From NCBI GenBank assembly GCA_965218435.1, contig CBDCKW010000009.1:3168001-3232000 (forward strand): a DNA stretch of 64,000 bases. Reading direction: 5' to 3'. The DNA is from Truepera sp. (GTDB taxonomy: Bacteria; Deinococcota; Deinococci; Deinococcales; Trueperaceae). The stretch's first letter is position 1. Every line of letters begins with the position of its first letter. The notes below the pieces were generated by a model. It did no database searches. It was given only the letters and a program-made list of their open reading frames with translations, and was not told the origin of the DNA. The position numbers and the translations under genes are program-made. Below are positions 1 through 64,000 of this stretch, in pieces.

Positions 1-2
1 CT

Positions 3-971
3 ACATCAGCATGGACAAAAAAAGAGTTCAACAGCGAGAGAGGGTCTGAGCAATTTTTTCACCTTGGTTTCGGCAAACCAGATTCTCTACGTCCGAAACC
101 TGTTGGCTTAATCGAGCATATTGTTCAGCTGATTAAACCCGACGAAGCCGTTGCGCTCGACTACTTCGCAGGCTCCGGCACCACCGGCCACGCCGTCATC
201 AACCTCAACCGTGAGGATGGCGGCACCCGCAAGTACATCCTGGTGGAGATGGGCGACTACTTCGATACGGTCTTGAAACCGCGTATTCAAAAGGTCGTCT
301 ACAGCAAAGACTGGAAAGACGGTAAGCCGGTGTCGCGGGAGGGTAGCAGCCAGCTCATTAAGGTGCTGAGGCTCGAGTCTTACGAGGACGCGCTGAATAA
401 CCTCGAGGTCAGGAGGCCCACTACCGGGCAGGGTGAGCTGGACTTTTCCGGTGACGCCATGAAGGGCTTTCGGGAGGACTACCTGCTGCACTACATGTTG
501 GATGTAGAAACGCGGGGCAGCGCGTCGCTCCTGAACATTGACGGTTTTAGAGACCCGTTCGCGTATGAGCTGAAGATTGCCAGCAGCAGCGCAGGCGAGA
601 CGCAGCCCACCAAAGTTGACCTCATCGAGACGTTTAACTACCTGTTGGGTTTGCAGGTCAAAACCACCGAGACGCTACAGGGCTTTAAGGTCGTTACCGG
701 ACAAACTCTGAGCGGGGAAAAAGTGTTGGTGATTTGGCGCAACCTGGACAAAAAAGACAACGCGGCGCTCGATAACTTTCTCTCTAGGCAGAAGTACAAC
801 CCTCGAGACATGGAGTTCGACCTGATTTACGTCAACGGCGACAACAACCTGCAGAACCTGCGGCGTGAAGATGAAACCTGGAAAGTTCGGCTGATTGAAG
901 AGGAGTTTCAACGGCTGATGTTCGATGTTAGGTCTGACGGGGCTAGTGCCCCTAACCTAAGGGACGTTTGA
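3..971 (+). CDS. mod: Type III restriction-modification DNA methyltransferase (Mod), 5'-truncated by the window edge
   Basis: Frame is open from base 3: ...RPKPVGLIEHIV...ALDYFAGSGTTGHAV (PKP plus the SAM-binding motif I of beta-class N6-MTases), then the typical Mod C-terminus 'VDLIETFNYLLGL...IYVNGDNNL'. Overlaps res. Confidence 0.9.
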   Translation, partial: TSAWTKKEFNSERGSEQFFHLGFGKPDSLRPKPVGLIEHIVQLIKPDEAVALDYFAGSGTTGHAVINLNREDGGTRKYILVEMGDYFDTVLKPRIQKVVYSKDWKDGKPVSREGSSQLIKVLRLESYEDALNNLEVRRPTTGQGELDFSGDAMKGFREDYLLHYMLDVETRGSASLLNIDGFRDPFAYELKIASSSAGETQPTKVDLIETFNYLLGLQVKTTETLQGFKVVTGQTLSGEKVLVIWRNLDKKDNAALDNFLSRQKYNPRDMEFDLIYVNGDNNLQNLRREDETWKVRLIEEEFQRLMFDVRSDGASAPNLRDV

Positions 972-3900
972 TGACGGTTGCAACGGAAGGCAAGGCAACG
1001 AAAAGGGCAAAAAAAGTAGACGTGCGGCTCGACCAGCAGCTTGTCTTGAACCGCTATTTACTGGGGCTTTTCGGGGTCGAGAAGCTTGAAGACCTGACGG
1101 AGGAACTCAAAGGCTCGGAGCTAGAGCGGCTTGACGAGAACAACATCTCGCAGTTTCACCACGAGCTGACGCACCGGCTTGGGCGGGCAGAACGTGTGTC
1201 GGGGGCGGTCGGCACACTCACCAAAGAGCTACTGCTCGGCTATGACGAGAACATCGTCTCGCACACGCTCCGTATCAGCCAGACGCGGGCGGAGCCGCTT
1301 CGCTGGAAATACTTTCAGTACCTCTCGCTGCTCTTTACCGAAATCTATCTGGACGCTTACTTTCGTGACCCGGACAGGCTTTTGGTGGGGCTGAACGAGC
1401 AGCTGGACGCCGTAAACGAGGAGCAGGGGACAGAACTCCCGCCTTACGAGCCGGACGACCTCCGCAAGCTCGCCTTCTGGAACGCGACGGGCTCGGGCAA
1501 GACGCTCTTGATGCACGTCAACATCTTGCAGTATCAGCACTACGCTAAGCGGCACGCTCAGGAAGGGGCGCTCAACCGTGTGATTTTGCTCACGCCCAAC
1601 GAGGGGCTTTCAAACCAGCACCTTAAGGAGTTTGAGGCGTCGGGTTTGGGGGCGGTGCGCTTTCAAAAAGACGGTGGCGGGCTCTTTTCCGGGGGCGCGG
1701 TCGAGGTCATTGACATTCATAAGCTTGCAGAAGAGTCGGGCGAGAAGACGGTTGCGGTGGACGCCTTTGAGGGCAACAACCTGGTTTTGGTGGATGAAGG
1801 ACACCGGGGCAGTTCGGGGCTCGAGTGGAAACGCCGCCGGGACGCGCTCTCTGTCGACGGGTTCGCGTTCGAGTATTCGGCAACCTTCGGGCAGGCGGTC
1901 AAGGCGAGTAAAAAGGACGACCTCAAGGCCGAATACGCTAAGTGCATCTTGTTCGACTACTCGTACCGCTACTTCTACGCTGACGGCTTCGGCAAAGACT
2001 TTCGCATCTTTAATGTGGGTGAGGAGCGTGAAGAAGTCCGGCAGCTCTACCTCACAGCCTGCTTACTGACTTTTTACCAGCAACTCCGCGCTTATAAAGA
2101 GAACGCACAAGCGTTTGCACCTTATGGGCTCGAGAAACCCTTGTGGGTCTTTGTCGGCGGCACAGTGACGGCGGTGCGAACCGTCGGGGGGCAGAAAGTC
2201 TCGGACGTGCTCGACGTGCTGCTTTTTCTGGCTTCATTTACCTCTGAGCGGGAGACAGTGCTGCGGCGTATCGAAACCTTACTGAGCGGGCACACCGGGC
2301 TTTTATCGGGCGCTAGCACGGATGCTTTCGCCAAAAGTTTTAGCTATTTGGTTTCCAGCAAAGACGCGCCGGAGGTTATTTACGCGGACATCTTGAAACG
2401 CGTTTTTAACGCGGGTGGTACAGGCAAGTTGCACGTCTCGCAGATAAAAGCTGCCGACGGAGAGATTGCGCTTCGTTTGGGTGAGAACGAACCCTTCGGC
2501 GTTATCAACGTCGGTGACGCGAAAGCACTTACCGACCTGTGCGGAGAACACCCAGACACGCTCTTGGTTGAGGACAGCGACTTTGCCGACTCGCTCTTTG
2601 GACGTATCAACCAGAAAGACTCGCCGGTCAACGTCCTTATCGGCTCTAAAAAGTTTACCGAGGGCTGGAGCAGCTGGCGGGTCTCAACGATGGGGCTCAT
2701 GAACATCGGGCGTTCCGAAGGCAGCGAGATTATCCAGCTCTTTGGGCGCGGGGTGCGGCTCAGGGGTTTTGAAGGTTCGCTCAAACGTAGCAGCGCGTTG
2801 GTGAGGACAACGGTGGGAACGAGCGGGATGCCCGCACCGGAGAACTTGCCACTCGTTGAGACGCTCGGTATTTTCGGCGTTCGCGCGGACTACATGCAGC
2901 ACTTTAAGGAGTACCTCGAGGAAGAGGGTATCCCGACTAACGAAGAGCGCGTAGAGTTCACGTTGCCGATTGTTAAAACGCTGGCCACTGAACCGCTTAA
3001 GGTCATCGGTATTCAGGGCGGGCTCGAGTTTAAGCAAGCTGGCCCCAAAGTTCTGCTGGGGCCACCACCGGAGGCGTTCACCAAAAGGCTCGTGGCGGTT
3101 AACTGGTATCCGAAGCTCGAGGCGGCCCAGAGTAAGGGTGTCAAAACGGGCAACGGTAGCGTGACGCTGCATACGGGCGTACTGGGCACAGAACACGTGG
3201 CACTTTTAGACCTGGACGCCCTTACCTTTGAGCTTCAGCGTTTCAAATACGAACGCAACTGGCATAACGTAAGCGTTTCTAAAGAAGCGGTGGCGGCGCT
3301 TTTGGCACGTCACGACTGGTACAAGCTCGAGATTCCGGCGCGGGAACTCCGCTTTACCTCATTTACGCAGGTGCGCGTCTGGCAGGAGGTAGCGACGGCG
3401 CTTCTGAAAAAATACCTCGAGCGGTTTTACACCTATCACAAGGCTGCGTGGGAAGGCGAGCGCCTCGAGGTGCAGACGCTTTCAGCGAAGAGCAGCAACT
3501 TTGTCGAACAGTACAAGGTGACGGTAGATGCACCTGAGAAGGAGCTGCTCGTCAAGCTAGAAGCACTTAAGGACAAGCTCGAGCGGGGTGAGCAGAGCGG
3601 CGATATAGCTTTCGGCGACTTTTACGCTTACGGCCTCGGTGTCCACCAGTACTACCCGCTTATCGCGAGTTGGGCCAAAGGGATTTCGGTCAGCCCGGTT
3701 GCGCTTAATTTGGGCGAGAAAGATTTTACCTACGACCTGAAAAGTTATCTCGAGCGCCCGGACACGCCCCTTACAGGCCAAAAGGTCTACCTGCTGCGTA
3801 ACCAGAGCCGGGGCAAAGGCTTAGGCTTTTTCGCCGAGGAAAACTTCTACCCCGACTTTATCCTCTGGATTGTGGACGGCGCACGGCAGTTCGTAACTTT

Positions 3901-4207
3901 CGTAGACCCTAGAGGCTTGCGTAACCTGAGTGGGTTGGAAGACCCCAAGATAACCTTTTTCAAAAAGGTCAAAGAGTTTGAGCAAAAACTAGGTGACCCC
4001 AATCTCATCTTAAACTCGTTTATCGTCTCCGGTACGCCGCTCGCGGACGTAAACTGGTGGGACAAAACGCTAGGCGAGCACGGGTTTTGCAAGTACAACG
4101 TGCTGTTTCAAAAAAGCTCTGCTTATAGCTCGGACTACAACTACGTCGGTACGATGGTCAAGCTTCTTTTGCAGCAAGGGGCAGCAGGACTCAAAGAGCA
4201 GCTTTAG
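968..4207 (+). CDS. res: Type III restriction endonuclease Res subunit (SF2 helicase plus PD-(D/E)xK-like nuclease)
   Basis: Walker A NATGSGKT, DEGH, SAT, QLFGRGVR; C-terminal FYPDFILW...FVDPRG; coupled to mod (the annotated start may be the ATG at 971). Confidence 0.88.
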   Translation: MMTVATEGKATKRAKKVDVRLDQQLVLNRYLLGLFGVEKLEDLTEELKGSELERLDENNISQFHHELTHRLGRAERVSGAVGTLTKELLLGYDENIVSHTLRISQTRAEPLRWKYFQYLSLLFTEIYLDAYFRDPDRLLVGLNEQLDAVNEEQGTELPPYEPDDLRKLAFWNATGSGKTLLMHVNILQYQHYAKRHAQEGALNRVILLTPNEGLSNQHLKEFEASGLGAVRFQKDGGGLFSGGAVEVIDIHKLAEESGEKTVAVDAFEGNNLVLVDEGHRGSSGLEWKRRRDALSVDGFAFEYSATFGQAVKASKKDDLKAEYAKCILFDYSYRYFYADGFGKDFRIFNVGEEREEVRQLYLTACLLTFYQQLRAYKENAQAFAPYGLEKPLWVFVGGTVTAVRTVGGQKVSDVLDVLLFLASFTSERETVLRRIETLLSGHTGLLSGASTDAFAKSFSYLVSSKDAPEVIYADILKRVFNAGGTGKLHVSQIKAADGEIALRLGENEPFGVINVGDAKALTDLCGEHPDTLLVEDSDFADSLFGRINQKDSPVNVLIGSKKFTEGWSSWRVSTMGLMNIGRSEGSEIIQLFGRGVRLRGFEGSLKRSSALVRTTVGTSGMPAPENLPLVETLGIFGVRADYMQHFKEYLEEEGIPTNEERVEFTLPIVKTLATEPLKVIGIQGGLEFKQAGPKVLLGPPPEAFTKRLVAVNWYPKLEAAQSKGVKTGNGSVTLHTGVLGTEHVALLDLDALTFELQRFKYERNWHNVSVSKEAVAALLARHDWYKLEIPARELRFTSFTQVRVWQEVATALLKKYLERFYTYHKAAWEGERLEVQTLSAKSSNFVEQYKVTVDAPEKELLVKLEALKDKLERGEQSGDIAFGDFYAYGLGVHQYYPLIASWAKGISVSPVALNLGEKDFTYDLKSYLERPDTPLTGQKVYLLRNQSRGKGLGFFAEENFYPDFILWIVDGARQFVTFVDPRGLRNLSGLEDPKITFFKKVKEFEQKLGDPNLILNSFIVSGTPLADVNWWDKTLGEHGFCKYNVLFQKSSAYSSDYNYVGTMVKLLLQQGAAGLKEQL

Positions 4208-4220
4208 ATAAGGTCTCGTG

Positions 4221-4279
4221 AAAAAACCGAGCTGAGAGTAGTATCCAACGCAAGTTAGACACCGCTCTCAGCTCGGTTT
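4221..4279. terminator. Long hairpin after res; terminator-like, with the U-tract on the minus strand
   Basis: AAACCGAGCTGAGAG (4224-4238) pairs perfectly with CTCTCAGCTCGGTTT (4265-4279); an inner stem ends in a GCAA loop. Confidence 0.6.
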
Positions 4280-4589
4280 CTAGGCGAACCCACGACAAAA
4301 ACTAGGGTACTCGAGCTGTCATGCTAAACAGGTGGGTTAGGTAAGGCTCCTTTTTTAAGGGTTCCAGCGTCGCGGAACACCCATCATGAAGTGCTCTGTA
4401 AAACAGATGTGGGAAAGCGTATCACCCGTATGAACCGAGCGGCTTAAAGTTCAAGGCATGGTCGCACCTCTACGTGAAGAGCCTAGTCAAGGTATAAGGC
4501 ACGTCTTGCCGGACGTGCTCGAGCCCTTTTAACTTGAGCAGGATGCTAAGCACAGCACCAAAACCGTCTTTTAGAAGTATCGTACCGCC

Positions 4590-4997
4590 GAATAGTGCAA
4601 CCGGAGCAGCGGCGTTCGACCTAGACGGTGTCACGTTGTTAAAAACGCGTGGACTAGACGCCGACGTTGCCGAGTACCTTAACTGCGCCTACGGCGACCG
4701 GGCCGTAAAAGTTGCCGAGCTCGCCCAAACCTATCCGGGACGCCTCGTACCGGGGCACCCATAGCTCGAGGCCGAAGTCGTCTACAGCGCCACCTATAAG
4801 GGAGCCGATACCGCCGTTGATTGTGCCGTACCCGGCTGGCGTTTTGAGACCAAAGGGCGGCGCTGGGGGCGCTGCCTAGAGTCATTGACCTGCTCGGCCA
4901 AACGCTTTCGTGGGACGAAGCCAGAAAACAGCGAGAGAGGCAGGAAGCTATGGCCTACTTCGGCAAAACCAAAGAACCTCAACCGGTGATGTCTTAA
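4590..4997 (+). pseudogene. glpD: C-terminal remnant of FAD-dependent glycerol-3-phosphate dehydrogenase
   Basis: Reads ...AYGDRAVKVAELA...RLVPGHP*LEAEVVYSA..., then after a frameshift RTRLAF*DQRAALGALPRVIDLLGQTLSWDEARKQRE, which is the GlpD C-terminal pattern. Two stops, a frameshift, no N-terminus. Confidence 0.75.
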
Positions 4998-5016
4998 AGT
5001 CGTCAGCCAGACGAAT

Positions 5017-5820
5017 CTAAATTGCTGTGTGTCTATTAAGAGCACCGTATCGCTCTTCCCATGTGTCTAAGAGAGGCTTCACGCTCATGAGCAAAGTTTT
5101 GCAGTAGCTCATCAGCTCTAAGTTTGCGTAGTCTTGTTCTCGTGGTGAAGCTGCTAGCCGCCAAACGATTTGAAAAGCGAGTGAAACTGCTACCTTAGCT
5201 TTTTGAAAGCAGAATGCGGCATATCGCCAATTCGTCATTTTGTTGAGTTTGGGATGTAATGCCAAGGGCAAAGCTCCGGAGGACGGATGCACAGCCTTAT
5301 CTTTAAAGTGGTAGATGTGTTTTAGTGCTTCTCTGAGCCCTTGAGTGTCTGAGTTGTCTATTCGATATGCCAGTCTGAGCACTTCTAAAACTTGTTTATA
5401 TCTAGCTGTCCTGTTATTGTACCAAGCTCGAGCCGTTTCGTCGGGTATAGTCACATAGTCTTTCGTGCTCGCATAAAATGCGTCTACCGCTATTCCAGCT
5501 GCCATCATTGCTTGCATACCAGAAGAGAACTCAAGCTTTAGCGCCTCACCTATCTCCTCGTTGTTATTTCTTTCTTCTGCATCTGTTATGGCGTTACTGT
5601 TCTTCTCTGTTATCACGAGATGACCGTAAGCAATTTGCAGCCAGTACGGACACATGTAAGACCCGGTGTGAAACTCAATCGGCTGAGCCTCTAACTTTCC
5701 ATCGTCCCTAATGCTTATCGTCAAGCTCGGTATAACTAGACTGTCACCTTCAACAAGAAACGGCTGTATATCTTGAGAACTCTCTTTATCCTTCTGTCCT
5801 TCATCATCTTCATTGACCAT
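5017..5820 (-). CDS. Hypothetical protein, low GC, possible HEPN-like fold
   Basis: 267-aa ORF, visibly AT-richer than its flanks; 'AAGIAVDAF' helix and 'FKDKAVHP' resemble the HEPN E/D...Rx4H motifs. Confidence 0.6.
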   Translation of the reverse strand: MVNEDDEGQKDKESSQDIQPFLVEGDSLVIPSLTISIRDDGKLEAQPIEFHTGSYMCPYWLQIAYGHLVITEKNSNAITDAEERNNNEEIGEALKLEFSSGMQAMMAAGIAVDAFYASTKDYVTIPDETARAWYNNRTARYKQVLEVLRLAYRIDNSDTQGLREALKHIYHFKDKAVHPSSGALPLALHPKLNKMTNWRYAAFCFQKAKVAVSLAFQIVWRLAASPREQDYANLELMSYCKTLLMSVKPLLDTWEERYGALNRHTAI

Positions 5821-5904
5821 GACCGATTATCACGAATGCAAAAAGTTTTTACAATACACTCCCTTGAGTTAGAAACAAGCAATGATAAGCTCTGCTGAAT
5901 CAGT

Positions 5905-6132
5905 CTATTTCTCGCGCCACCGCCCCGAATCATCTTTTTCGTAGGTCTGCCCGACCGCCGACCACGCCACCCGGTGCGAGACCTCTTCACGTGAGGCGTC
6001 GTCACGGCGCTCATCCGGGTCTTTGTACTCGTCCCAGGCGCTGTTATAGGCGGCGCGGTAGATTTCTTGGGCGTGTTTGGGCAGGTTATCTTGAACCGAG
6101 TCGGGTAAATCACTTAGATTTTTGTAAGGCAT
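5905..6132 (-). CDS. chaB: ChaB family putative cation transport regulator
   Basis: MPY..LSDLPDSVQDNLPKHAQEIYRAAYNSAW...HRVAWSAV...YEK..GRW signature. Confidence 0.92.
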   Translation of the reverse strand: MPYKNLSDLPDSVQDNLPKHAQEIYRAAYNSAWDEYKDPDERRDDASREEVSHRVAWSAVGQTYEKDDSGRWREK

Positions 6133-6171
6133 GTCGAACCCTCGACCCTCGTATCGTTACGCTAAGTCAGA

Positions 6172-7026
6172 TTATTCCCGAGAAACCTTGCCCAGACTGT
6201 TCTCTGGTTCCGGTTGCAGGTCCTCTTCCGGCCGCACCTCTTCAGAAACGGGCTTGTCCCGCAAGACGCCGCGTAAAAGGATAACGTAACCGACGATACC
6301 GATAAGCGCAAACGAAAACCACTGAAACGCATACGAGAGGTGCGGCCCCTGGCTGATTTCGGGAGGCGGCGGCGGAACGGGGAGTTGCCCCGACTGAGCA
6401 GGCGTCTGCGTGGCGAGTTCTAAAAAGACGGGCTCGAGCGTATACGGCCGCCCTACACTGAGACGGGCCGGATCAACAAAGAAGGCTGCCTCGAGCTTTC
6501 CTTTAGCCGGGTCTTTCTGAACCAAACCGAGCGAACCGAGAAACCCGCCCCCGGTAGGTTCCGGCTGAGCGGGTTGCAAAATGCCGGTCACAGTTACCTT
6601 TTCGGGCGGCGGCGCAGCTTCTCTAATCGGTGGATCGTCGAGCGCGAAAGGCACCCACCCCCGGTCTACTAAGAGCGCACGGCCCGACGCTAAACGTAGG
6701 GGCGTCAGGACGTGATAACCCGGTTGCTCGTTTAGCGCACGGGAACGAAGTAAAAGCTCGTTCGCCGTATCAAAACGTCCCGTTACTTGGGCGCGGCGGT
6801 AGGCGACCGAATCCTCTGCCCGCTCAGAAGCAGTCGAAGAATATTGGTTGACGAGTTGGCCAAAGGGCTGAGGTCGAGCCTCGAGGCGGGCCTCGAGCAG
6901 CGCGTTATACGCTTCCCGCTGAGCGAGGCGGCGCAACTGCCAAAAGCCAAAGTTGACAAACAAGACAACCAAGCCGAAGGCTAAAAGATGACCGAACAAC
7001 CAGCGCGGCGTTAAAAGTTTTTTCAT
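6172..7026 (-). CDS. SURF1/Shy1 family cytochrome oxidase assembly protein
   Basis: GFWQLRR, PGYHVLTPL, LLVDRGWVP and HLSYAFQWFSFA motifs; ATG at 7026 with GAGG RBS; last gene of the oxidase operon. Confidence 0.9.
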   Translation of the reverse strand: MKKLLTPRWLFGHLLAFGLVVLFVNFGFWQLRRLAQREAYNALLEARLEARPQPFGQLVNQYSSTASERAEDSVAYRRAQVTGRFDTANELLLRSRALNEQPGYHVLTPLRLASGRALLVDRGWVPFALDDPPIREAAPPPEKVTVTGILQPAQPEPTGGGFLGSLGLVQKDPAKGKLEAAFFVDPARLSVGRPYTLEPVFLELATQTPAQSGQLPVPPPPPEISQGPHLSYAFQWFSFALIGIVGYVILLRGVLRDKPVSEEVRPEEDLQPEPENSLGKVSRE

Positions 7027-7116
7027 GTCCTCTTCTCGAGCAAAAAGGGACGCAGCAGCATAAACTGTGCGCCCCTTTAGTATCAACGTGTCAACAAACG
7101 TGTCAAACGGTGACGC

Positions 7117-10979: not shown

Positions 10980-10987
10980 ATTCTCTC

Positions 10988-11896: not shown

Positions 11897-11902
11897 TTTT
11901 AG

Positions 11903-53545: not shown

Positions 53546-53619
53546 GTGACTTGAGTCTGCAAGCGATGCAACTGCATCTGCGTCGCTTGTGATTCTTTTA
53601 GGTATTTAGCCGACCGTGC

Positions 53620-53874: not shown

Positions 53875-53984
53875 AGTAGCCTCCTAAGCGGCATTTTAGC
53901 CTGAAACAGGCTTGCATGGAAAGTGTGCGGGTGTACAGGCGGACTAGGCCACCTGTACACAACCGGCAGAATCTACGCTCACTG

Positions 53985-54375
53985 AGATTAGCTCGAGCCT
54001 TCCCGATCCCAAAACGCGGTGAACTTTCGCGCCGCCGCCTCGACTTCGTAAGTGTCTTTAGAGGTGTCCATTTCGGCGGTCAAGTTGCGGCTAAAGGTCT
54101 CTGGGGTGCGCTCATGCGACTCAAAATCCAAACATCTTTCAGAACGTAAACGTTCAACCATCCGGTACGCTCGAGCGTCTACACTGAGCCCGACCAAAAT
54201 CCGCGTCTTCTCGACACTTTCCAAAGAGGCGTAAAGCCGCCGGAATCCGCTTGTCCGTAACCGACCGACACGTCAAAATACTGCGCGTCCTTAAGCGTTT
54301 GGACAAAACGGCCGTAAAGCGTTCCGTCCGGTTCGTTGTAAAAAACCGCAGGTCGGTTTGAGAAACGCTCGGTAT
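53985..54375 (-). pseudogene. 5' remnant of a PLD-domain/SNF2-type helicase gene (defence-associated family)
   Basis: Across frameshifts reads TDLRFF(T)NEPDGTLYGRFVQTLKDAQYFDVSVGY..TSGFRRLYASLESVEKTRILVGLSVD...RKFTAF(L)GSGRLEL; ATA where the start codon is expected; stops before the HxK motif. Confidence 0.7.
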
Positions 54376-54495
54376 AGCACCCTTCTCTCGGCTCGTTCGG
54401 CTTACGTCTGTTACGACTTACTTTGCCTTGTGGCGTTTGGCGGACAGTTTATAAAGTTCACGGCATTCGCATCGGTTTCTTCTGGCAGCGGTGTA

Positions 54496-54517
54496 ACAAA
54501 GGGTTGCAACCCTTTGT
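54496..54517. repeat. Perfect 22-bp palindrome
   Basis: ACAAAGGGTTGCAACCCTTTGT. Confidence 0.9.
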
Positions 54518-54573
54518 CGCAGATATACGCGTGGTTCTAGGTAGCTTTTGGTGCGCGTGATAGCGTAAAGCTT

Positions 54574-55965: not shown

Positions 55966-55978
55966 AGTCAGCTCCCGG

Positions 55979-56392
55979 TTAGGCACGGCTTACGGCCCAC
56001 ACCGAACTTGCAGCCACGACGATATGCATCAGCTCTAACATGACGACCGTTAGTCTCGGCGCACCGGTCAGCGTAAACGGCGTAAAGATCATCAGGGCGA
56101 AGATTACGGCGGCAACGAGATAAAATGTCCGCTTCGGCTGAGCGGTAAAACGCACCAGCAGCAAAAAGACGAGCGCGGCGATAATTACCGGGAAAAAACT
56201 AAAGATGATCACCGGAACGACGGTAAAGGGCTGCCCCTGAACCTGGACTGTGGGCGGAAACGCCCCGAATAGCTTGCCTAAAAGGTAGAGCAGCACATTG
56301 ATGAGGAGCGCAGCGGCAACCAGGGTGGCAAACGTCAGGTTCCGGTAAGAGACGGCTCGAGTTTTTACGGGGGTAGCCTGGTCAGAGGTCAA
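55979..56392 (-). CDS. Small membrane protein (DUF6069-like)
   Basis: Four hydrophobic segments, LELMHIVVA; AAGGAG RBS before TTG. Confidence 0.75.
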   Translation of the reverse strand: MTSDQATPVKTRAVSYRNLTFATLVAAALLINVLLYLLGKLFGAFPPTVQVQGQPFTVVPVIIFSFFPVIIAALVFLLLVRFTAQPKRTFYLVAAVIFALMIFTPFTLTGAPRLTVVMLELMHIVVAASSVWAVSRA

Positions 56393-56670
56393 AACAACTC
56401 CTTTAGAGCTTTAGCGTAGCGAACCGAGACTGCGCCGCGCAAGTTCGGAGTAGTCCAAGCTCAGTTACAGGCTGACCAAATCGTTTTGCGCACCTCGGGC
56501 TCGGGTAGGGCGGCGCAGCGTTCGTTTAAGATAGGCTTAGCAGTGCCGACTCCAGGATCGGCAAAAACTAAAGTTGAGAGAAAACGCACACTGTAGGGCG
56601 GCCCGGCTGACGACACTTTTTGAGTGACGAGGGCAGTGACTAACAAAGGCTTAGCAACATGTTTCATCAT

Positions 56671-56706
56671 GGTTTACTAGGTGGTTTACCAGGCGGTTTG
56701 CCAGGG
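56671..56706. repeat. 12-bp tandem repeat x3
   Basis: GGTTTACTAGGT GGTTTACCAGGC GGTTTGCCAGGG. Confidence 0.75.
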
Positions 56707-56787
56707 CAGAGCCTGGGCGCACCAGGCGCAGACGGCAAAACAGTTTGACCTTCTTTTGACCTCAAGTTTCTAACCTCGGGAGGATAG

Positions 56788-57912
56788 ATGAAAATTGCCT
56801 TTATCAAAGCGGGCAGCTTTTCGCACACGAACGCCAACGTCGAAACGCTCTTAACCAAGCACTTTCCGGACGCTGAGCTCGAGATCATTGACGTTCTCAA
56901 GCTCGTCCCCACCAAGTCTCTTGCCAACTTGTTAGGTGTTGTCAGCGAAAAAGGGGTGAGCGTGTTTTGGGACAATCGGTCTTTATCACGGCACCTTTCC
57001 AGCTCGGTGCATTACACCCAAAAGGTGCGGCGCGCCCTTGAAAAGCGCCTTGCCGGTCAGGACTACGCGTTTACCTTTCAAACTCAGTCTTTATTTGACG
57101 CCAGCGTACCGGGCGTACCCCACTTTCTTTATACCGACCATACCCGGCTCGCCAATCGCCACTATCCCGGCTACAGTCTTAAAGGTTTTTCGCCCAAACT
57201 TTTAGAGCTCGAGACCGAAAGCTACCACCGGGCTACGCGCGTTTTTACCATGAGCGAAAACATCACCCGTTCGCTGATAGAAGATTATGGTTGCGACCCC
57301 GAAAAGGTCGTTTGCGCCTCGGTAGGCAGCAACGTAAACTACCCGTCAGATGTAGACGCGAGTTTGGAACGCTACACGAAACGCCACCTTCTCTTCGTCG
57401 GGCTTAATTGGGAGCGCAAGGGGGGACCGCTACTAGTCGAAGCCTTTACGCGCGTATTAGACGTTTACCCGGACGCCAAACTGACCGTCGTAGGGTGCAG
57501 CCCGAAGCTCGAGCTCCCTAACTGTCAAGTGCTCGGCGTGATAAGCCCACAAGCAGTAGCAGAGTTTTACCGCGACGCGTCGGTGTTTTGTTTACCGACC
57601 AACCGGGAACCTTTCGGCATCGTGTTCGTCGAGGCCGCAAACTACAAGTTGCCGGTCGTAGCCACGCGTATCGGCGCGATTCCCGAAATTGTCTTAGAGG
57701 GTAAGAGCGGCTTACTGATCGAGCCTAGAGACGTCGCCGCGCTTACAGACGCACTCCTCACGCTCTTAGGCGACCCGGAGAAGTGCCGAGCGTTTGGACA
57801 GGCGGGGTTTGAGCACGTCCGTCGGCACTACACTTGGGAACACGTCGGAGAGACCTTTTTCAGTCATATCCGCCCCCAGCTGGCTGCCGCCTCGAGTCCT
57901 GAAGGGGCCTAG
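56788..57912 (+). CDS. Glycosyltransferase family 4
   Basis: LLFVG..WERKGG, EPFGIVFVEAA, PVVATRIGAIPEIV. Confidence 0.93.
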   Translation: MKIAFIKAGSFSHTNANVETLLTKHFPDAELEIIDVLKLVPTKSLANLLGVVSEKGVSVFWDNRSLSRHLSSSVHYTQKVRRALEKRLAGQDYAFTFQTQSLFDASVPGVPHFLYTDHTRLANRHYPGYSLKGFSPKLLELETESYHRATRVFTMSENITRSLIEDYGCDPEKVVCASVGSNVNYPSDVDASLERYTKRHLLFVGLNWERKGGPLLVEAFTRVLDVYPDAKLTVVGCSPKLELPNCQVLGVISPQAVAEFYRDASVFCLPTNREPFGIVFVEAANYKLPVVATRIGAIPEIVLEGKSGLLIEPRDVAALTDALLTLLGDPEKCRAFGQAGFEHVRRHYTWEHVGETFFSHIRPQLAAASSPEGA

Positions 57913-58115
57913 AGAGAAAACGAGCTCGAGATGTTTGTACCGCTGGGGCGTCGGCTATAGCAAGAGCCCTATACAATTCACGCCTTCTATTTATAACTTT
58001 TGTCCGTTTGTTATGGACAGCGTAGCGAACTGAGGCGTGTGACGCAAATTCAGGTGAAGCTCGCGCCACAATAGTTGATCTTTTCAGGCGTTGTGGAAAA
58101 GACATGCGGGCAAAG

Positions 58116-58568
58116 TTACATGGCGGAATTAAGGAGTTTCTCGAGTTGATTTCGCAGCTGAGCCAGCTCTTTTTCACCAAGTAGCGCGGCATATTCTGCT
58201 TCAAGGATGAGTTTCACGTCATACGCGGCGCGTAGGGCATCTTTGCCCAACTCGGTAAAGCCGATAAGCGACGCTCGGTTATCGCTCGCGTCTTTTTTTC
58301 GTTCGACGTAGCCTTTTTTCTCGAGTTCGTGAGCCAGCTGACCCATAGCTTGCTTAGTTACGCCAGCCCTGTCAGCCAAGGTCGTGATGCGTGTACCCTC
58401 TATGTCTAAGTTGGCAATCAACACCGTATGAAAAAGCGTGATATTGGTGAATCCCTTTTCGTGTAGTAGGTTAACAGCACGCTCACTGTAGGCACGCGCA
58501 ACGCGTTGAAATAATCGTCCTATATTTTTTTCTCGCATATCCAGCAAGTTTTTCTGAAGTTCAGACAT
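58116..58568 (-). CDS. MarR family transcriptional regulator
   Basis: TTLADRAGVTKQAMGQLAHELEKKGYVER..DASDNRA...TELG; ATG at 58568. Confidence 0.92.
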   Translation of the reverse strand: MSELQKNLLDMREKNIGRLFQRVARAYSERAVNLLHEKGFTNITLFHTVLIANLDIEGTRITTLADRAGVTKQAMGQLAHELEKKGYVERKKDASDNRASLIGFTELGKDALRAAYDVKLILEAEYAALLGEKELAQLRNQLEKLLNSAM

Positions 58569-58583
58569 TACCGTTTCCTTGAC

Positions 58584-58630
58584 AGTAAAGACAAGTTGCT
58601 TTACTATTAATTGGTCAATCAACTTGACTA
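58584..58630. promoter_or_regulatory. Putative MarR operator palindromes
   Basis: AGTAAAG-N8-CTTTACT and GTCAA-N5-TTGAC between the divergent marR and ABM genes. Confidence 0.55.
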
Positions 58631-58649
58631 TACCGTTCGGAGGTTACCC

Positions 58650-58946
58650 ATGTTTGTCATCAGAGTGCGGCTGACTGTAAAACCAGAAAGTAGAGATGCT
58701 CTTCTCTCTCATATGCAGGCGGAGATGCAAAGAAACAGCGAGCTAGACGGCTGTAAAGCTTATGCCCTTTACCAAAATGCTTTCGACACCAATGCCTTTC
58801 TTTTGTACGAAGAGTGGCGTAATGTGGCTGCGTTTAACAGCTATAAAGACTCCGAGGCTTTCAAGCAAATTATGAGCGCACTTTTCCCACTTATCGCAGG
58901 TAAACCCGACTCTGCCTATTACGATTCGACTTTAGTCGGCCCCTGA
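58650..58946 (+). CDS. Antibiotic biosynthesis monooxygenase (ABM) family protein
   Basis: VKPESRD...GC..YALYQ...FLLYEEW; GGAGG RBS. Confidence 0.88.
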   Translation: MFVIRVRLTVKPESRDALLSHMQAEMQRNSELDGCKAYALYQNAFDTNAFLLYEEWRNVAAFNSYKDSEAFKQIMSALFPLIAGKPDSAYYDSTLVGP

Positions 58947-59726
58947 TATAGTTTCTAAAACCTCCGACAAGAGCGCCCTCGTCGTACTCATTCCCTCTTC
59001 TGCATAAACGGTCTCTTGCCCCGACCAATCGCCGAAATATCCGCCCGCTTCGCGCAACAAGACCGGAAACGGCCCGCAGTCCCAGGCGTTCATCACCGGG
59101 TCAAACATCGCTTCCATCCGGCCCGTAGCCACCAGCATGTGCCCGTAAGCGTCCGACCAGCCCCGGCGGTCGTAGGCTGCGGCAGCTAGACGTGACCACT
59201 CAGCTTCACGGTTATAGGCAGCAAAACTGGCGATATCGGTAAAGCCGACGGTGCTTTTAGCGAGGGTTGTTTTGTCCGACACCCGCGCCGGACGCCCGTT
59301 GAGCGTACAGCCCAAACCCGTTGCAGCGGCGCAGAGTTCGTTTAGGGCTGGAAAATAGGCGACGCCGACCTCGACGCGGCCTTCAACCTCGAGACCCAAT
59401 AAGACCCCATAAAGTGGCACGCCCCGGACGAACGCTTTAGTGCCGTCAACCGGGTCTACGAGCCAACGGTGCGTCGCATCTTTGGTATCTTCACCAAACT
59501 CTTCACCGACGATAGCGTGTTCTGGATACCGCGCCCCCAAGCGGCGGCGAATCAGCGTTTCAGCTTCGCGGTCTGCGAGCGTGACGGGGCTGGCGTCGTC
59601 TTTGTAGGTCAGCCCCAAGCCTTCCGGCGAGCGGCCGAAGTAACCGAGCGTCAGGCGTCCGGCGTCATAGGCGAGTTCAGTGGCGAACTCGAGCAGGGGC
59701 TTAAGGTGAGCAGGTGATGGGGGCAT
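58932..59726 (-). CDS. hisN: Histidinol-phosphate phosphatase, inositol monophosphatase family
   Basis: KDDASPVTLADREAE, GEEFG, DPVDGTKAFVRGVP, WD. Confidence 0.85.
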   Translation of the reverse strand: MPPSPAHLKPLLEFATELAYDAGRLTLGYFGRSPEGLGLTYKDDASPVTLADREAETLIRRRLGARYPEHAIVGEEFGEDTKDATHRWLVDPVDGTKAFVRGVPLYGVLLGLEVEGRVEVGVAYFPALNELCAAATGLGCTLNGRPARVSDKTTLAKSTVGFTDIASFAAYNREAEWSRLAAAAYDRRGWSDAYGHMLVATGRMEAMFDPVMNAWDCGPFPVLLREAGGYFGDWSGQETVYAEEGMSTTRALLSEVLETISGAD

Positions 59727-59914
59727 AGCGTGTCCTTTGCTGTTGGGCTAGGTGCAGGTGGGTCAGGTACAGGTTTTTATAACGGCCAGGGCGTACTTGC
59801 CGGCTCACCGGCTTAACTCTCGCTTGCTACTTTTTCGCTACCCTTAAAACGTCTATAAAGCCCAAAAGCAGCGTATCTTTCTGCCAGACAGTATATGACG
59901 CGCTAAGCTGAACT

Positions 59915-61069
59915 ATGATCTATACGCGCGAGCGGCTCGAGGGGCGCGAAGCCGAGACGTTGGCTCCTTACGCTGTGCTCGCCTCACAGAGCCGGGGCCG
60001 TAGCTACCCGGAACCCGAATCACGTTACCGCACCGCCTTTCAAAAAGACCGCGACCGGGTGATTCACACCTCGGCGTTTCGGCGGCTCGAGTACAAAACG
60101 CAAGTCTTTGTCAACTACGAAGGCGACCACTACCGCACCCGCTTGACGCACACCTTAGAGGTCGCGCAGGTTGCCAAAAGCATCACCCGTGCCCTCGGCC
60201 TAAACGACGACCTTGCTGAAACGGTCGCCCTCGCCCACGACCTCGGGCATCCGCCCTTTGGTCACGCCGGAGAAGATACCCTTAACCGGCTGGCGAAGGC
60301 CGACGGCGGCTTTGACCACAACAAACAGTCGCTCAGGGTGGTGACCGAACTCGAGCACCGCTACCCAGACTTTCCCGGCCTCAATTTAACCTGGGAGACC
60401 CTAGAGGGCATCATGAAACACGAAACTGAGTACGACCTGCCAGGGTTTGGCAGCGACTGGGAACCCGATTTGCAACCCTCGTTGGAGGCGCAAGTTGTCA
60501 ATGTGGCCGATGAGCTGGCGTACAACGCGCACGACTTAGAAGACGGACTGCGCGGCGGTCACCTGAGCCCGCCGCAAATTGCCGAAGTTCCGCTCGTCGG
60601 CGACCTCATGACGCAGCTGGGGCTGGACACGCACCATTTCGGCAGTGCTGAACGCTACATTTTGATTCGCGAACTGCTGGGATTGACGATTGAGAGCACC
60701 ATCCGCGAAACCGACCGTCAGCTCGGCGTTTACGGCGTCGAAACGTTGAGTGATGTGCGGCACGCGCCGACCAAACTCGTCTGCACTGAGCCCAAACTGC
60801 ACGCAGAGCTCGCCGAGCTTAAAAGTTTTTTGTACGCCAACCTCTACTACCACTACCGCCAAATCCGCATGACCCGTAAAGCCGACCGGATGCTCTCGGC
60901 GCTCTTTTCGGCCTACTGTGACACCCCAAAGATGCTGCCGTGGGCGGTGCAGGCAGAGGTCGAGGGAAAAGGACTCGTGCGCACAGTTACGGATTACCTG
61001 GCGGGGATGACCGACCGCTACGCTTCGGATGAATACCGGAGGCTCTTCGACCCACTCTCGCTGACTTAA
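59915..61069 (+). CDS. dgt: Deoxyguanosinetriphosphate triphosphohydrolase-like HD protein
   Basis: FQKDRDRVIH..AFRRLEYKTQVF, RTRLTHTLEV, AHDLGHPPFGHAGE, DYLAGMTD. Confidence 0.96.
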   Translation: MIYTRERLEGREAETLAPYAVLASQSRGRSYPEPESRYRTAFQKDRDRVIHTSAFRRLEYKTQVFVNYEGDHYRTRLTHTLEVAQVAKSITRALGLNDDLAETVALAHDLGHPPFGHAGEDTLNRLAKADGGFDHNKQSLRVVTELEHRYPDFPGLNLTWETLEGIMKHETEYDLPGFGSDWEPDLQPSLEAQVVNVADELAYNAHDLEDGLRGGHLSPPQIAEVPLVGDLMTQLGLDTHHFGSAERYILIRELLGLTIESTIRETDRQLGVYGVETLSDVRHAPTKLVCTEPKLHAELAELKSFLYANLYYHYRQIRMTRKADRMLSALFSAYCDTPKMLPWAVQAEVEGKGLVRTVTDYLAGMTDRYASDEYRRLFDPLSLT

Positions 61070-61235
61070 GGATAAGGATTTGCTAGAGCTAACAAGCCGT
61101 TAACTTGACCCCACAACACAGTTATGACAGAACCACTGTGCCTAACATGCCAACCGAGCATACTCGAGGCACGTTAACGAGAGCATCAAGATCAAGCTAT
61201 GCTCTTGTAGAAAACGTAACCTTCGGGAGGGGAAG

Positions 61236-61655
61236 ATGGACAACGACCTACAAGACTTTGAACAGTTTTTGAAACAGCGTGAGGAAGCTTCACAAGCGTA
61301 TGTGAACGGCGACGCCGAGCCGCTGCGCCGCATTTCTACGCGCACGTCGCCTGCCACCTTTTTCGGTCCACCCGGCGACGTGGTTCAAGAGCCGGAACAG
61401 GTTATCTCGAGCTACAAAAGCAGCGCCGAACACTTCGAGTCCAGCAGTGACAACCACTTTGAAACACTTCAAATGGCAGCAAATGACGATATTGCTTATT
61501 GGGTCGGGATTCAGCGGGCAACCGCTCGCATGAAGGGACAAGCGGAAGAGGCTTCTTTCAATCTACGCCTAACCGAACTGTTCCGCCGCGAAGAGGGCGA
61601 ATGGAAGATGGTTCATCATCACGCCGACTTTCTTAAAATGGAAGCTGAAGACTGA
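61236..61655 (+). CDS. NTF2-like (SnoaL/DUF4440) family protein
   Basis: AYVNGD, LRLTELFRREEGEWKMVHHHAD. Confidence 0.85.
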   Translation: MDNDLQDFEQFLKQREEASQAYVNGDAEPLRRISTRTSPATFFGPPGDVVQEPEQVISSYKSSAEHFESSSDNHFETLQMAANDDIAYWVGIQRATARMKGQAEEASFNLRLTELFRREEGEWKMVHHHADFLKMEAED

Positions 61656-61738
61656 AAACTTAGCCACCACCCAACAAGTTATGGAAAAGGCGAAATAGAT
61701 TTGTCCCATAAAAACGTTTGTCTTTCTTGGAGACTGTA

Positions 61739-62512
61739 ATGAAAACCTTTGACCATCATTCAGGCAAACATTTAGAGATAGACGGAGCCAGCATCTATTA
61801 CGAAGAAACCGGCGATAAGAACGCTTCGGTTTTACTGCTTTTGCACGGAGGCTTTGGGAACCTCGAGGACTTTAACCCCATCCTTCCCGACCTAACGAAA
61901 ACCTTTAGAGTCATTGGGATGGACAGCCAGGGGCAGGGCAAATCAACGCTCGGTTCACACCCATTGACGTATGAGCGGTTGCAAAAAGATGTTGAACGTG
62001 TGCTCGAGCACCTCAACATTGACGCTTTGAGTATTATCGGCTTTAGCGACGGCGGCATTACCGCTTACAGACTTGCTTCACTGACATCGTTAAACATTGA
62101 CAAGCTCGTAACAATTGGTTCACGTTGGCATCTAAAAAACACCGAAGCAACACGAGATATATTTCTAAAAATTACCGGCGAGAGTTGGCGAGAAAAGTTT
62201 CCTGACATGTACGACGACTACCAAAGCCTCAATCCCGAACCGGATTTCGACTTTCTGACTCATTCTCTCATTGATATGTGGCTCGATTCCGCGTCATCTG
62301 GCTATCCGAACGAGGCGGTCAAAAACATTTTCTCTTCCTTGCTGATCGTTCGCGGTGATGACGACCATCTTATCTCTAAAGAAACGGTTGTCGAATTGTC
62401 AGAACTCGTAAAAGGCTCGAGCTTGTTCAACATTCCGTTTGCGGGGCACGACGCCTTTGTGAGTCAAAAAGAGATATTCATGCTTGGCTTAAACGAGTTT
62501 CTCGAGCGATAA
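61739..62512 (+). CDS. Alpha/beta fold hydrolase
   Basis: LLLHGG, GQGKS, GFSDGG nucleophile, GDDD, AGH. Confidence 0.92.
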   Translation: MKTFDHHSGKHLEIDGASIYYEETGDKNASVLLLLHGGFGNLEDFNPILPDLTKTFRVIGMDSQGQGKSTLGSHPLTYERLQKDVERVLEHLNIDALSIIGFSDGGITAYRLASLTSLNIDKLVTIGSRWHLKNTEATRDIFLKITGESWREKFPDMYDDYQSLNPEPDFDFLTHSLIDMWLDSASSGYPNEAVKNIFSSLLIVRGDDDHLISKETVVELSELVKGSSLFNIPFAGHDAFVSQKEIFMLGLNEFLER

Positions 62513-62534
62513 TCCCAGATTTTGTAACCGCTGA

Positions 62535-62679
62535 GGTCATCCTCTATTAGCGTTTTTGGAACGATGCCAAATCGCTATGGTTGCCAGAGTTACTGTGCTA
62601 AGCCGTGTAACCATTTGTGAAAGAAATGATGCCTGCCCGTATACTCAAGAAAATCAAGGAGGCAATTGATAATGAGTGA
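62535..62679 (+). pseudogene. 3' remnant of a RelE/HigB-type toxin
   Basis: VILY*RFWND..LWL..., then KEMMPARILKKIKEAIDNE*, overlapping the antitoxin start; internal stops, no 5' part. Confidence 0.55.
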
Positions 62680-62974
62680 CAAAGACTTGGCTCAGTGGGA
62701 AGAAGGGCGTGACCTTGGGCAAGAGATTCTCGAGGGTATTAAAGCAGTTCAGTCAGGCGATATAGGTCGCAAATTCACGCCCAAGTCTTTTTCAGTGGTG
62801 CGTACACGTGAGAAGTCAGGGCTTAGCCAAAGCCGCTTTGCCGAGCTCTTAGGAGTGTCTGTCCGCACGCTGCAAGACTGGGAACAAGGGCGACGTGAAC
62901 CGTCAGGCGCAGCTAAGACCTTGCTTAAAATAGCTGAACTGCACCCCGAAGTTCTAAGTGAAGTAGCAGCTTAG
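62672..62974 (+). CDS. XRE-family HTH antitoxin (HigA-like)
   Basis: REKSGLSQSRFAELLGVSVRTLQDWEQGRREPSGAAKTLL; AGGAGG RBS. Confidence 0.9.
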   Translation: MSDKDLAQWEEGRDLGQEILEGIKAVQSGDIGRKFTPKSFSVVRTREKSGLSQSRFAELLGVSVRTLQDWEQGRREPSGAAKTLLKIAELHPEVLSEVAA

Positions 62975-63025
62975 TGGGATGGGTTTCTCCCGACTAGAAA
63001 AGATTGACACTCTAAGTAGCATCTG

Positions 63026-63598
63026 ATGAAACCGAAAGTAAGCTGGTCGGTCATACTCTTCGCGGCTCTGCTCTTAACAGGCGGTAAGCCAATAACGAGT
63101 TCTCACAGTAAGCAGGTTGTTCAGCCTAGTAAGCAAGTTGCCAGACAAAACCATTTGGCCGAAAGCTTAAAGACTTGGCAAAGACCCAAAGCTCTTCATA
63201 ACGGTAGCTACCGCTACAGCGTTGAAGGAGGCTTTTTGACTTTCTACGGCGTTACAACTATTACGGTAAGAAAAGGTAAAGTGGTCTCGCAAATCCATAG
63301 TTATTTTGAAAGAAATAACAAAGACCAATGGGTATTTATGGACGAATACAGTTGGACCGAAGAAGGTGTAGCAGTTGGAAGTCACGAAGGTGTTGCACCG
63401 CTCACAGTAGATGAGCTTTACAAAGTTTGCCGAGACGAGGTGCTTACCCGAAATCCCCGAGTTAACGATATTTATCTCGACTTCAAAGCCAACGGCGTGT
63501 TGGACAGTTGCGTCTATGGCCTTAAGGGTTTTACCACTGACGTTTTTCCAGGCGTTTATGTTGGTACGCTCGAGTTTCTCCCCACTAAACCCGACTAA
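63026..63598 (+). CDS. Hypothetical secreted protein (DUF6174-like)
   Basis: Signal-like N-terminus; YRYSV...TITVRKGKVV...TVDELY; low GC; followed by a terminator. Confidence 0.65.
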   Translation: MKPKVSWSVILFAALLLTGGKPITSSHSKQVVQPSKQVARQNHLAESLKTWQRPKALHNGSYRYSVEGGFLTFYGVTTITVRKGKVVSQIHSYFERNNKDQWVFMDEYSWTEEGVAVGSHEGVAPLTVDELYKVCRDEVLTRNPRVNDIYLDFKANGVLDSCVYGLKGFTTDVFPGVYVGTLEFLPTKPD

Positions 63599-63617: not shown

Positions 63618-63648
63618 AAAAGGGACGGCCTCAGCACGTCCCTTTTTT
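63618..63648. terminator. Bidirectional rho-independent terminator
   Basis: AAAAGGGACG-gcctcagca-CGTCCCTTTTTT between convergent genes. Confidence 0.85.
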
Positions 63649-63661
63649 ACTGGTAAATAGT

Positions 63662-64000
63662 TTACTTCCCGAGCGTACTCCGCGCCGTCCCGAGCAGCTC
63701 ACCCGTCGAAACATCTCTAAACCACGCCGACCCGAGGTTAGGCTTGTCTATCCGGACCATCACCCACGGGTTGGTGAGCGCCTGCGTCGTCAGGGTGCCG
63801 GGAGCGGGTTGAGTAATAGCAAGGTCGAGATACGCTTCGCCCTGTTCGACGGCGACGTTTTGCACATCTACGCTGTAACCGCCGCTGCGCTGCGTGCCTA
63901 AAAAGAAGGCGGCGACGCTTGACTGCCCAAAATCAACCTCCGGCAGTGGGGGCGGAGAGGTCATCGCGCCGTAAGCGCGGTTCCAGATCGTTTCCAAATC
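63662..64000 (-). CDS. PrcB C-terminal domain protein (partial; 5' end is outside the window)
   Basis: VDF....VAAFFLG...SGGYSV.V...TQALTNPWVMV. Confidence 0.8.
   Translation of the reverse strand, partial: DLETIWNRAYGAMTSPPPLPEVDFGQSSVAAFFLGTQRSGGYSVDVQNVAVEQGEAYLDLAITQPAPGTLTTQALTNPWVMVRIDKPNLGSAWFRDVSTGELLGTARSTLGK

Follow-up and report, generated by a model that had tools for sequence, protein, structure and literature searches.

The stretch analyzed here is a window of 64,000 nucleotides (G000:C9:3168001-3232000) in the 4.8-Mb genome G000 of a Truepera species, and the element in question is the palindromic hexamer CTCGAG, which is scattered across a type III restriction locus, a chemosensory cluster and the spacers between genes (Table 1). 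We counted 157 copies where dinucleotide shuffles give 21.5 +/- 4.4, and none of 100 shuffles reached 157. In total, 102 of the sites lie in the reading frame for Leu-Glu, the remaining two frames contain 22 and 9, and 24 are in non-coding DNA or low-scoring gene calls. A first-pass annotation, made from the letters alone, had described CTCGAG as a highly iterated palindrome (HIP) comparable to the cyanobacterial HIP1 (GCGATCGC). Its 27 sites in the first 8.3 kb were recovered by our recount, its GC content of about 57%, estimated by eye, is computed as 56.3%, and 17 of the 18 spacer sites that it listed are indeed outside gene calls, while the one at 32003 falls inside a low-scoring call of 37 amino acids (aa). 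The density was said to continue throughout, and this holds far beyond the window: G000 contains 9,883 CTCGAG, 2,060 per Mb or about one per 490 bases, and it is the commonest hexamer there; in the proposed Markov comparison its observed/expected ratio (O/E) is 5.2 under a second-order model. All nine contigs bear the word (1.2-5.2/kb), the density along the chromosome is even (191-246 per 100 kb), and most other palindromes are avoided.

Table 1. Features in the window and elsewhere in G000 on which the analysis draws
Feature	Position	Strand	Remarks
157 dispersed CTCGAG	372..63574	.	2.45/kb; G mildly preferred in front and C behind (GCTCGAGC)
3' part of the second piece of the split type III mod gene	1..971	+	PF01555
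Type III restriction (Res) gene	968..4207	+	1,079 aa; Pfam ResIII; 10 sites
Two intergenic CTCGAG copies (4310, 4518)	4310..4523	.	outside gene calls
CheA-like kinase gene	41374..44718	-	10 sites; example of core-gene density
mutS-mutL	G000:C9:2474335-2478527		outside window
addA	G000:C9:3359875-3362589		outside window
P0001, candidate writer, gamma-class adenine methylase	G000:C9:3672240-3673934		564 aa; outside window

The excess is set at the level of the DNA and concerns the exact word. In a synonymous shuffle of 4,052 genes, which holds the proteins and each gene's codon use fixed, CTCGAG showed O/E values of 3.21 (6,322 vs 1,972), 6.61 (527 vs 80) and 5.14 (1,317 vs 256) by frame, and the mirror word GAGCTC was depleted (0.53, 0.30 and 0.22). 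The 2,016 spacers of 20-300 bp (238 kb) hold 429 CTCGAG, again the top hexamer (O/E 7.2), and the excess is alike in tandem, divergent and convergent spacers. Before the word stands a G in 430 of 855 intergenic strand-counts against a background of 25%, and in three chromosome segments the flanks are about equal on both sides, with no strand orientation. To express the fold preference for the exact word we use k, obtained by modelling the choice among synonymous codons by pseudo-likelihood, with terms for codons and tetranucleotides. Fitted to 1,500 of the 4,052 genes, it gave CTCGAG a coefficient of +2.2 (k = 9.0); the next palindrome reached +0.32, and nine one-off word classes lay between -0.20 and +0.48 (background standard deviation 0.10), the lowest being TTCGAG. 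We conclude that the CTCGAG excess is a DNA-level effect of about ninefold on the exact word only. The first-pass annotation had held that codon use cannot explain the sites, which also occur in other frames, and had named a codon-preserving shuffle and intergenic DNA as the places where its view could fail; the excess survives both, at 3-7x in all frames and 7x in spacers.

The sites are also kept between species beyond codon conservation, which the annotation had wanted checked. Among 524 orthologue pairs with the relative G005 (800 kb out of its 4.0-Mb chromosome, coding DNA only), 475 of 599 CTCGAG were kept at conserved Leu-Glu pairs against 100 of 173 CTC-GAC, and the odds ratio of 15.6 compares with 0-12.8 among 16 dicodons used as controls, of which the one at 12.8 had only 8 cases. 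A first substitution model (reversible, no doublet exchanges or rate variation) indicated fast gain (c = 1.8). A second one, with rate variation and seven control tables, gave c = 1.28 with a single factor and, with a free CTC-TTR doublet edge, c = 0.52 (roughly 0.3-0.9) at a fit better by 6.7 units; at k = 9 the latter corresponds to loss slowed about sixfold and gain speeded up 1.5-fold, and pure gain is rejected by 14 log-likelihood units. Control pseudo-targets ranged over c 0.83-2.11. Retention is the better reading of these substitutions, not a firm one: where the annotation had a process that "creates or keeps" sites, keeping is backed by the better-fitting model and creating less so, the simpler model having said the opposite. 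Of about 3,200 population differences in three runs of one study covering the region, the 40 listed were too few for counts of gain and loss.

Neighboring sites avoid each other at short range. Comparing occupied with unoccupied Leu-Glu pairs, we found ratios of 0.56 at 6-25 bp, 0.78-0.86 at 25-200 bp, 0.91 at 200-300 bp and about 1.0 beyond. The controls GCCGAG, CTCGAC and GCGGCG showed no deficit, GTCGAG one below 50 bp, and the short-gap deficit was repeated in G005 (108 vs 143, 118 vs 139). Lag counts to 150 bp, inspected by eye, revealed no obvious short-lag periodicity. With its presence in all frames and spacers, exact-word specificity, retention and self-avoidance, CTCGAG thus behaves as the annotation proposed, like a HIP under an active DNA-level process.

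Base composition matters as well: genes of at most 45% GC carry 0.80 CTCGAG/kb and use the word for 15% of their Leu-Glu pairs, those above 56% GC 2.0-2.4/kb and 50-59%. Eight multicopy mobile genes hold none (2.2 expected), and neither do the tRNA genes (3.5 kb in total). The scarcity in AT-rich genes and the absence from mobile genes and tRNA suggest that sites accumulate after arrival. Sites in AT-richer, foreign-looking genes, as noted at first pass, are therefore present, but sparser there and lacking in the multicopy mobile genes. The 21-kb contigs G000:C6 and C8 reach 5.2 and 3.2 sites/kb against 2.1 on the chromosome. The densest cluster (6 in 300 bp) lies at G000:C9:2230955-2231440, and the longest CTCGAG-free gap, 5.7 kb at G000:C9:731378-737052, covers a peptide ABC transporter region. 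Among the avoided words are GGCGCC (52), GGGCCC (49), TTTAAA (58), GGATCC (67), AGGCCT (93) and GGWCC, more than the methylases found in G000 obviously explain. A regex search did not find dnaA.

Within the window the Res gene is a bystander, a defence gene with host-level CTCGAG density. The mod gene upstream of this intact-looking res is split into two open reading frames, in different frames, inside the catalytic domain (G000:C9:3165773-3168971), and its PF01555 match spans a stop and two frames at G000:C9:3167300-3168257; it is either a pseudogene or an assembly error. Type III recognition sites are asymmetric, for which reason the first-pass annotation had thought Mod an unlikely cause; the gene is split in addition, and we likewise rate the type III system an unlikely cause. 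The chemosensory cluster (39692-48441, minus strand) comprises response regulators, the CheA-like kinase, a methyl-accepting chemotaxis protein and CheW.

The comparison with related genomes covered 201 genomes of the order Deinococcales, whose group labels were inferred from gene content and named homologues (g17 Thermus-like, g20 Meiothermus-like, f2 Deinococcus-like); f1 denotes the Trueperaceae, 58 genomes searched and 59 with G000. CTCGAG occurs at 4.3-6.5/kb in f5 (12/12), 1.4-3.5 in g20, 2.5-3.4 in g42 and g44, 0.6-1.6 in g17, at most 0.27 in f2 and 0.3-2.6 in f1. The trait hence spans the order: many Trueperaceae and Meiothermus-like genera show it strongly, f5 shows it to an extreme degree and Deinococcus-like genomes lack it. 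For k, fitted on samples of 40-400 kb and in only five Trueperaceae, we obtained 9-11 in G000, 8-12 in G005, 26-46 in f5, 9 in G044, 7 in G179 and in g42, 4-5 in G024, 1.4-2.0 in G001, 1.0-1.4 in G016, G020 and G007, and near 0 in G060. The alternative measure, the CTCGAG/GAGCTC ratio, is inflated by GAGCTC avoidance and misleads in Thermus-like genomes: G134 has a shuffle O/E of 0.89, yet k is 7-15 over a TCGA-avoiding background. On the T. thermophilus plasmid pTT27 (L383, 1-50000) 55 of 59 TCGA lie inside CTCGAG and TCGA is purged elsewhere. An Allomeiothermus silvanus plasmid has k ~4, and the temperate-looking Meiothermus phage MMP17 carries the word at a host-like 2.6/kb (k 4-5), while Thermus phage P23-45 has 0.12/kb.

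GAGCTC, a circular permutation of CTCGAG, is near-absent in several of the most enriched lineages (G205, G210, f5, g21, g30), with 3-25 copies in 10 of 12 f5 genomes and 170 and 152 in a Myxococcota pair; it is low in some Deinococcus-like genomes too, and the link to the CTCGAG excess may be chance. No description of the excess was found in the literature searched, most subscription papers being outside its reach, and the accessible parts of PMC13756078 and PMC5861425 contain no match for Deinococcus or Thermus. We conclude that the CTCGAG excess is real, order-wide and HIP-like in behavior, and that it is not HIP1 itself.

The orphan methylase that the annotation expected to co-occur was found in the form of P0001, while the XhoI/PaeR7I-type family that it had in mind was not found in G000. 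The P0001 gene is flanked by glgA and a gene for a site-2 protease, close to dnaG, and is present in 5/5 congeners, 29/58 f1 and 14/18 g20 genomes, in many Trueperaceae often beside dnaG. The protein matches Pfam M_Eco57I_C and not TaqI_C, and thereby represents a third family beside the PaeR7I-like and TaqI-like ones; no solved structure was found for it, and its phage and plasmid relatives are only distant. Its predicted target is CTCG(m6A)G (m6A, N6-methyladenine), as suggested by the substitution pattern, the Myxococcota pair described below and a partner nuclease for which there is a faint hint of XhoI-family membership. G000 itself contains neither this partner (a P0123 homologue) nor an XhoI-family nuclease (PF04555; present in 5/201 relatives). 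With no cognate nuclease and a site enriched rather than avoided, CTCGAG does not resemble the site of a type II restriction-modification system such as XhoI or PaeR7I there. The other methylases of G000 are of type I, type III and, in low-GC islands, two C5 enzymes.

P0001-family loci in other phyla mostly have P0123 (L015:866-1534; 222 aa, 597 homologues) downstream, and the two families, paired in many phyla, apparently constitute an uncharacterised type II restriction-modification family. Among 45 loci checked the partner stands only at G005, G087 and G012. The predicted P0123 fold is that of a generic PD-(D/E)XK nuclease (best Z 9.2, NucC), it has no Pfam match and the fold does not reveal the specificity; the XhoI-family lead is weak (a cluster with 13% PF04555; probability 1.2%). 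Site avoidance near 73 non-Deinococcota loci of the family did not reveal the target of P0001 either (O/E 0.78-0.93 in 3/4 groups).

PaeR7I recognizes CTCGAG. An M.PaeR7I-like family occurs in 14/201 genomes, at 64% to a protein so named, and an M.TaqI-like family (E 1e-126) in all 30 g17, both g45 and G024, where methylation of TCGA would reach the adenine within CTCGAG as well. Of the 57 f4 genomes, 53 carry one and only one of the three families (TaqI-like 32, PaeR7I-like 7, P0001-like 14). At one locus (L077/L119, G162:C4:631399-634857) a PaeR7I-like gene directly adjoins a broken P0001-family gene, which looks like a methylase replacement in progress. Blow et al. (PMC4752239) report orphan m6A CTCGAG methylases active in Marinithermus hydrothermalis, Meiothermus ruber and M. 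chliarophilus at 94-99.5% of sites (M.Mhy14884I, M.Mru1279II and M.Mch9957IV), with no cognate nuclease listed; the main text of that paper mentions neither these genera nor a genome-wide excess in them.

An independent case lies in another phylum. Among the 73 non-Deinococcota loci, L181 of the Myxococcota genome G205 stood out with a local CTCGAG O/E of 7.4, and the genome holds 19,006 CTCGAG vs 170 GAGCTC, with CTCGAG as top hexamer and k 8-10; in 134 kb of it the three frames exceed expectation 2.3x, 23.8x and 4.3x, with 8 vs 1.6 sites in spacers. Of G205 and 60 relatives only G205 and G210 have CTCGAG far above GAGCTC, and both hold the best P0001 matches (52%). Both are metagenome-assembled genomes and the pair counts as one event. 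In a 44-row tree the enzymes of Trueperaceae (10), g20 (8) and Myxococcota (2) fall into three distinct groups, each of them supported, and the branching among the groups is weakly supported, 7 of the 51 chosen rows (6 Trueperaceae, 1 g20) having been dropped beforehand at a motif filter. Judged by these sequences, the pair shows the same excess with what appears to be a separate clade of the P0001 family. The pair (L181, L286, L287) has densities of 2.7 (G205) and 2.2/kb (G210); the neighbor of the orphan gene is a suf operon in the former and an ATPase gene in the latter.

MutL is found in 20/58 f1 plus G000, 58/58 f2, 5/15 f3, 56/57 f4 and 12/12 f5 genomes; the remaining 38 of the 58 Trueperaceae genomes searched gave no match. 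Across the 59 Trueperaceae a CTCGAG/GAGCTC ratio of at least 3.3 was reached by 19/20 genomes with MutL and methylase, 0/14 with methylase only, 1/24 with neither and 1/1 with MutL only. Within the family, the excess tracks methylase plus MutL.

A bias that acts on a heteroduplex tract is consistent with the exact-word preference, the retention and the declining benefit of further sites within about 300 bp. The repeated recruitment of same-adenine enzymes, together with the Myxococcota case and the distribution of MutL, suggests that methylation of the site labels the strand to be kept. We tentatively favor the explanation that CTCGAG is a genome-wide highly iterated palindrome held by biased heteroduplex repair, with the predicted P0001 mark telling MutS/MutL which strand to retain. 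P0001 would methylate the adenine (CTCG(m6A)G); two alleles would meet when replication errs, when chromosome copies undergo gene conversion or when DNA enters the cell; the methylated strand with the site would become the template and be kept by MutS/MutL-dependent repair. A second site within one repair tract would add little, which would account for the spacing within about 300 bp, and lineages with excess and no known methylase would have lost or replaced theirs. Elhai's idea for HIP1 (PMC4390886, section 3.4) is the same scheme, here with m6A. One may go further and speculate that bacteria have a general route independent of MutH, by which a restriction methylase, once orphaned, comes to label strands or alleles for MutS/MutL-linked repair and drives its own word to HIP levels. 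It would have happened to CTCGAG at least twice, in Deinococcales with three interchangeable enzymes and in Myxococcota with the enzyme family acquired separately, and HIP1 would be one case of a repeatable process; we consider this wider claim possible but doubtful.

Several observations weigh against repair guided by a methyl mark. The specificity of P0001 is itself a prediction, and no reader of the mark was found. The three methylase families were not found in f5 (0/12, k 26-46) or g42 (0/4, k 7), and four Pfam families yielded no conserved methylase in 3-4 f5 genomes. None of the five motifs reported for A. silvanus DSM 9946 is CTCGAG (PMC4752239), and its plasmid still has k ~4, so that methylation is not strictly required for the excess. 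G211, with a 48% P0001 relative and no partner nuclease seen, has no excess, and G001 has MutL and two methylases at a k of only 1.4-2.0. The MutL table draws on related genomes and may reflect one loss event, confounded by kinship, GC and GAGCTC avoidance. No MutH (PF02976) was found in G000, although it was in 9/201 relatives and the control matched in E. coli, and G000 MutL retains what we take to be the endonuclease motif. Finally, the verdict on gain or loss depends on the model (c = 1.8, 1.28 or 0.52), and samples of f5, G044 and G001 showed no short-gap deficit.

The main rival, which we regard as unlikely, is a recombination reader independent of methylation, e.g., AddAB with CTCGAG as a palindromic Chi-like stop, the methylases being kept as a shield against invading XhoI-type nucleases. 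AddA was found in all enriched Deinococcales groups (including f5, 12/12, and g42), in 57/58 f1 (not G007, k 1.2) and, as weak matches, in 16/58 f2 genomes, and Deinococcus is described as lacking addAB (PMC11143384). Being near-universal outside f2, AddA fits the Deinococcus gap and the methylase-less lineages, and such a reader would explain A. silvanus, f5, the free swapping of three methylase families, the exact-word specificity and the self-avoidance. However, AddA is present at k ~1 in G016 and G020 and in 37/38 low-ratio Trueperaceae that lack MutL. What G205 and G210 share with Deinococcales is the methylase and not AddA, of which they have only distant forms (E 1e-10 to 1e-11), like three relatives without excess, and none of the Deinococcota type. 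Furthermore, in Synechococcus the effect of HIP1 persisted when addAB was deleted, and the Chi sites known so far are non-palindromic (10.1101/2024.09.10.611283).

Less probable still is that methylated CTCGAG identifies DNA as the cell's own, during uptake or in the processing that follows it in natural transformation, and that biased uptake drives the word; such a role has been proposed for HIP1. Methylated HIP1 raises transformation about 100-fold in Synechococcus, and methylated RAATTY of Campylobacter jejuni offers a second precedent (10.1101/2024.09.10.611283). G000 has ComEC-like and DprA-like motif matches (regex only), and the host-like density of MMP17 against that of P23-45 would agree with such a mark. 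One-off words are not enriched in G000, unlike the graded matches of uptake sequences; biased uptake also gives no reason for the MutL pattern and meets the same methylase-less exceptions as methyl-guided repair.

We judge it improbable that an abundant protein of the nucleoid or of chromosome maintenance binds CTCGAG and that ordinary purifying selection keeps the coverage even, as Xu et al. argue for HIP1 (PMC5861425). The uniform chromosome density and the short-range self-avoidance are in line with it, and classical selection (c ~0.8) falls within the interval of the best model, but there is no candidate protein, the density varies about 10-fold among relatives, small plasmids exceed the chromosome (C6, 5.2/kb) and the lag counts show no obvious periodicity at short lags. 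There is only a slim chance that the word arises from particular precursors by directional mutation, such as Vsr-type T:G repair at 5-methylcytosine, with no retention involved. In favor of this, CTC-GAA (316) is scarce within the Leu-Glu pairs, the one-off coefficient of TTCGAG is the lowest, the simpler substitution model favored fast gain and CTCGAG 5-methylcytosine methylases with Vsr are known in other phyla, yet no one-off class is strongly drained, pure gain is rejected, both C5 methylases of G000 sit in low-GC islands and the marks reported in relatives are m6A. Codon and dipeptide usage (Leu-Glu as CTC-GAG), to which the Leu-Glu-frame majority in the window and the 1.3-1.9 sites/kb at k ~1 in the GC-rich relatives G016 and G020 might point, is refuted for G000 by the excess in all frames and in spacers and by the depleted GAGCTC.

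Why cyanobacteria carry HIP1 has been debated for three decades, and a HIP of another word that extends through a whole order provides a counterpart. It lets lineages be compared that have or lack methylase, MutL and AddAB and that range from no excess to 45-fold, with an independent lineage in another phylum, and the cause is directly testable in cultured, transformable relatives with known methylomes. We predict that these thermophiles will differ in how efficiently they are transformed when CTCGAG is included or methylated, and that protein sequences have been shifted by the word (Leu-Glu O/E 1.25 in G000, 2.2-2.3 in f5).

As an enzyme, P0001 shares the gamma class of m6A methylases (NPPY/F) with M.PaeR7I/M.XhoI, M.TaqI, M.Mru1279II, M.Mch9957IV and M.Mhy14884I; the last three come from the order of its host, while P0001 belongs to a different family and its target is predicted. 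Chi of AddAB/RecBCD (PMC11143384) is likewise a short over-represented word, and AddA accompanies all enriched Deinococcales groups. Unlike Chi, CTCGAG is palindromic and without strand polarity, AddA also occurs without excess, and in the Myxococcota pair AddA of the Deinococcota type is lacking. Compared with GATC in E. coli, CTCGAG is in far greater excess. Dam/GATC repair also combines an orphan m6A methylase, a palindrome and a proposed MutS/MutL strand mark (PMC4390886, section 3.4), whereas G000 has no MutH and a MutL with its own endonuclease motif. The methylated RAATTY of C. jejuni (10.1101/2024.09.10.611283) is an abundant palindrome with an orphan methylase as well, but differs in word and enzyme family, and an uptake role is only a candidate here. 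CTCGAG also resembles HIP1 and the alternate HIPs: dispersed short palindromes at 500-2,700 per Mb (here 2,060), in excess in all frames and spacers, conserved between species, with a G/C extension of a hexamer core and usually an orphan methylase, with exceptions (PMC4390886, PMC5861425). In G000 CTCGAG is the only palindrome with a large positive coefficient and its sites are conserved between orthologues, as for a HIP in the broad sense. HIP1 proper, with its cyanobacterial host and DmtA/DmtC, is another matter, since the word here is CTCGAG, CGATCG has an O/E of 0.15 and the genome is Trueperaceae-like; according to the accessible text of PMC5861425, high HIP1 abundance is not seen outside cyanobacteria. 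The fold excess is about 9x in G000 and 26-46x in f5 vs 15-300x for HIP1, and the mark in Deinococcales relatives is m6A, while Elhai's model needs a methylated C after G. CTCGAG further differs from HIP1 in phylum and in word, as a hexamer with a soft flank preference only, and in that three unrelated methylase families substitute for each other.

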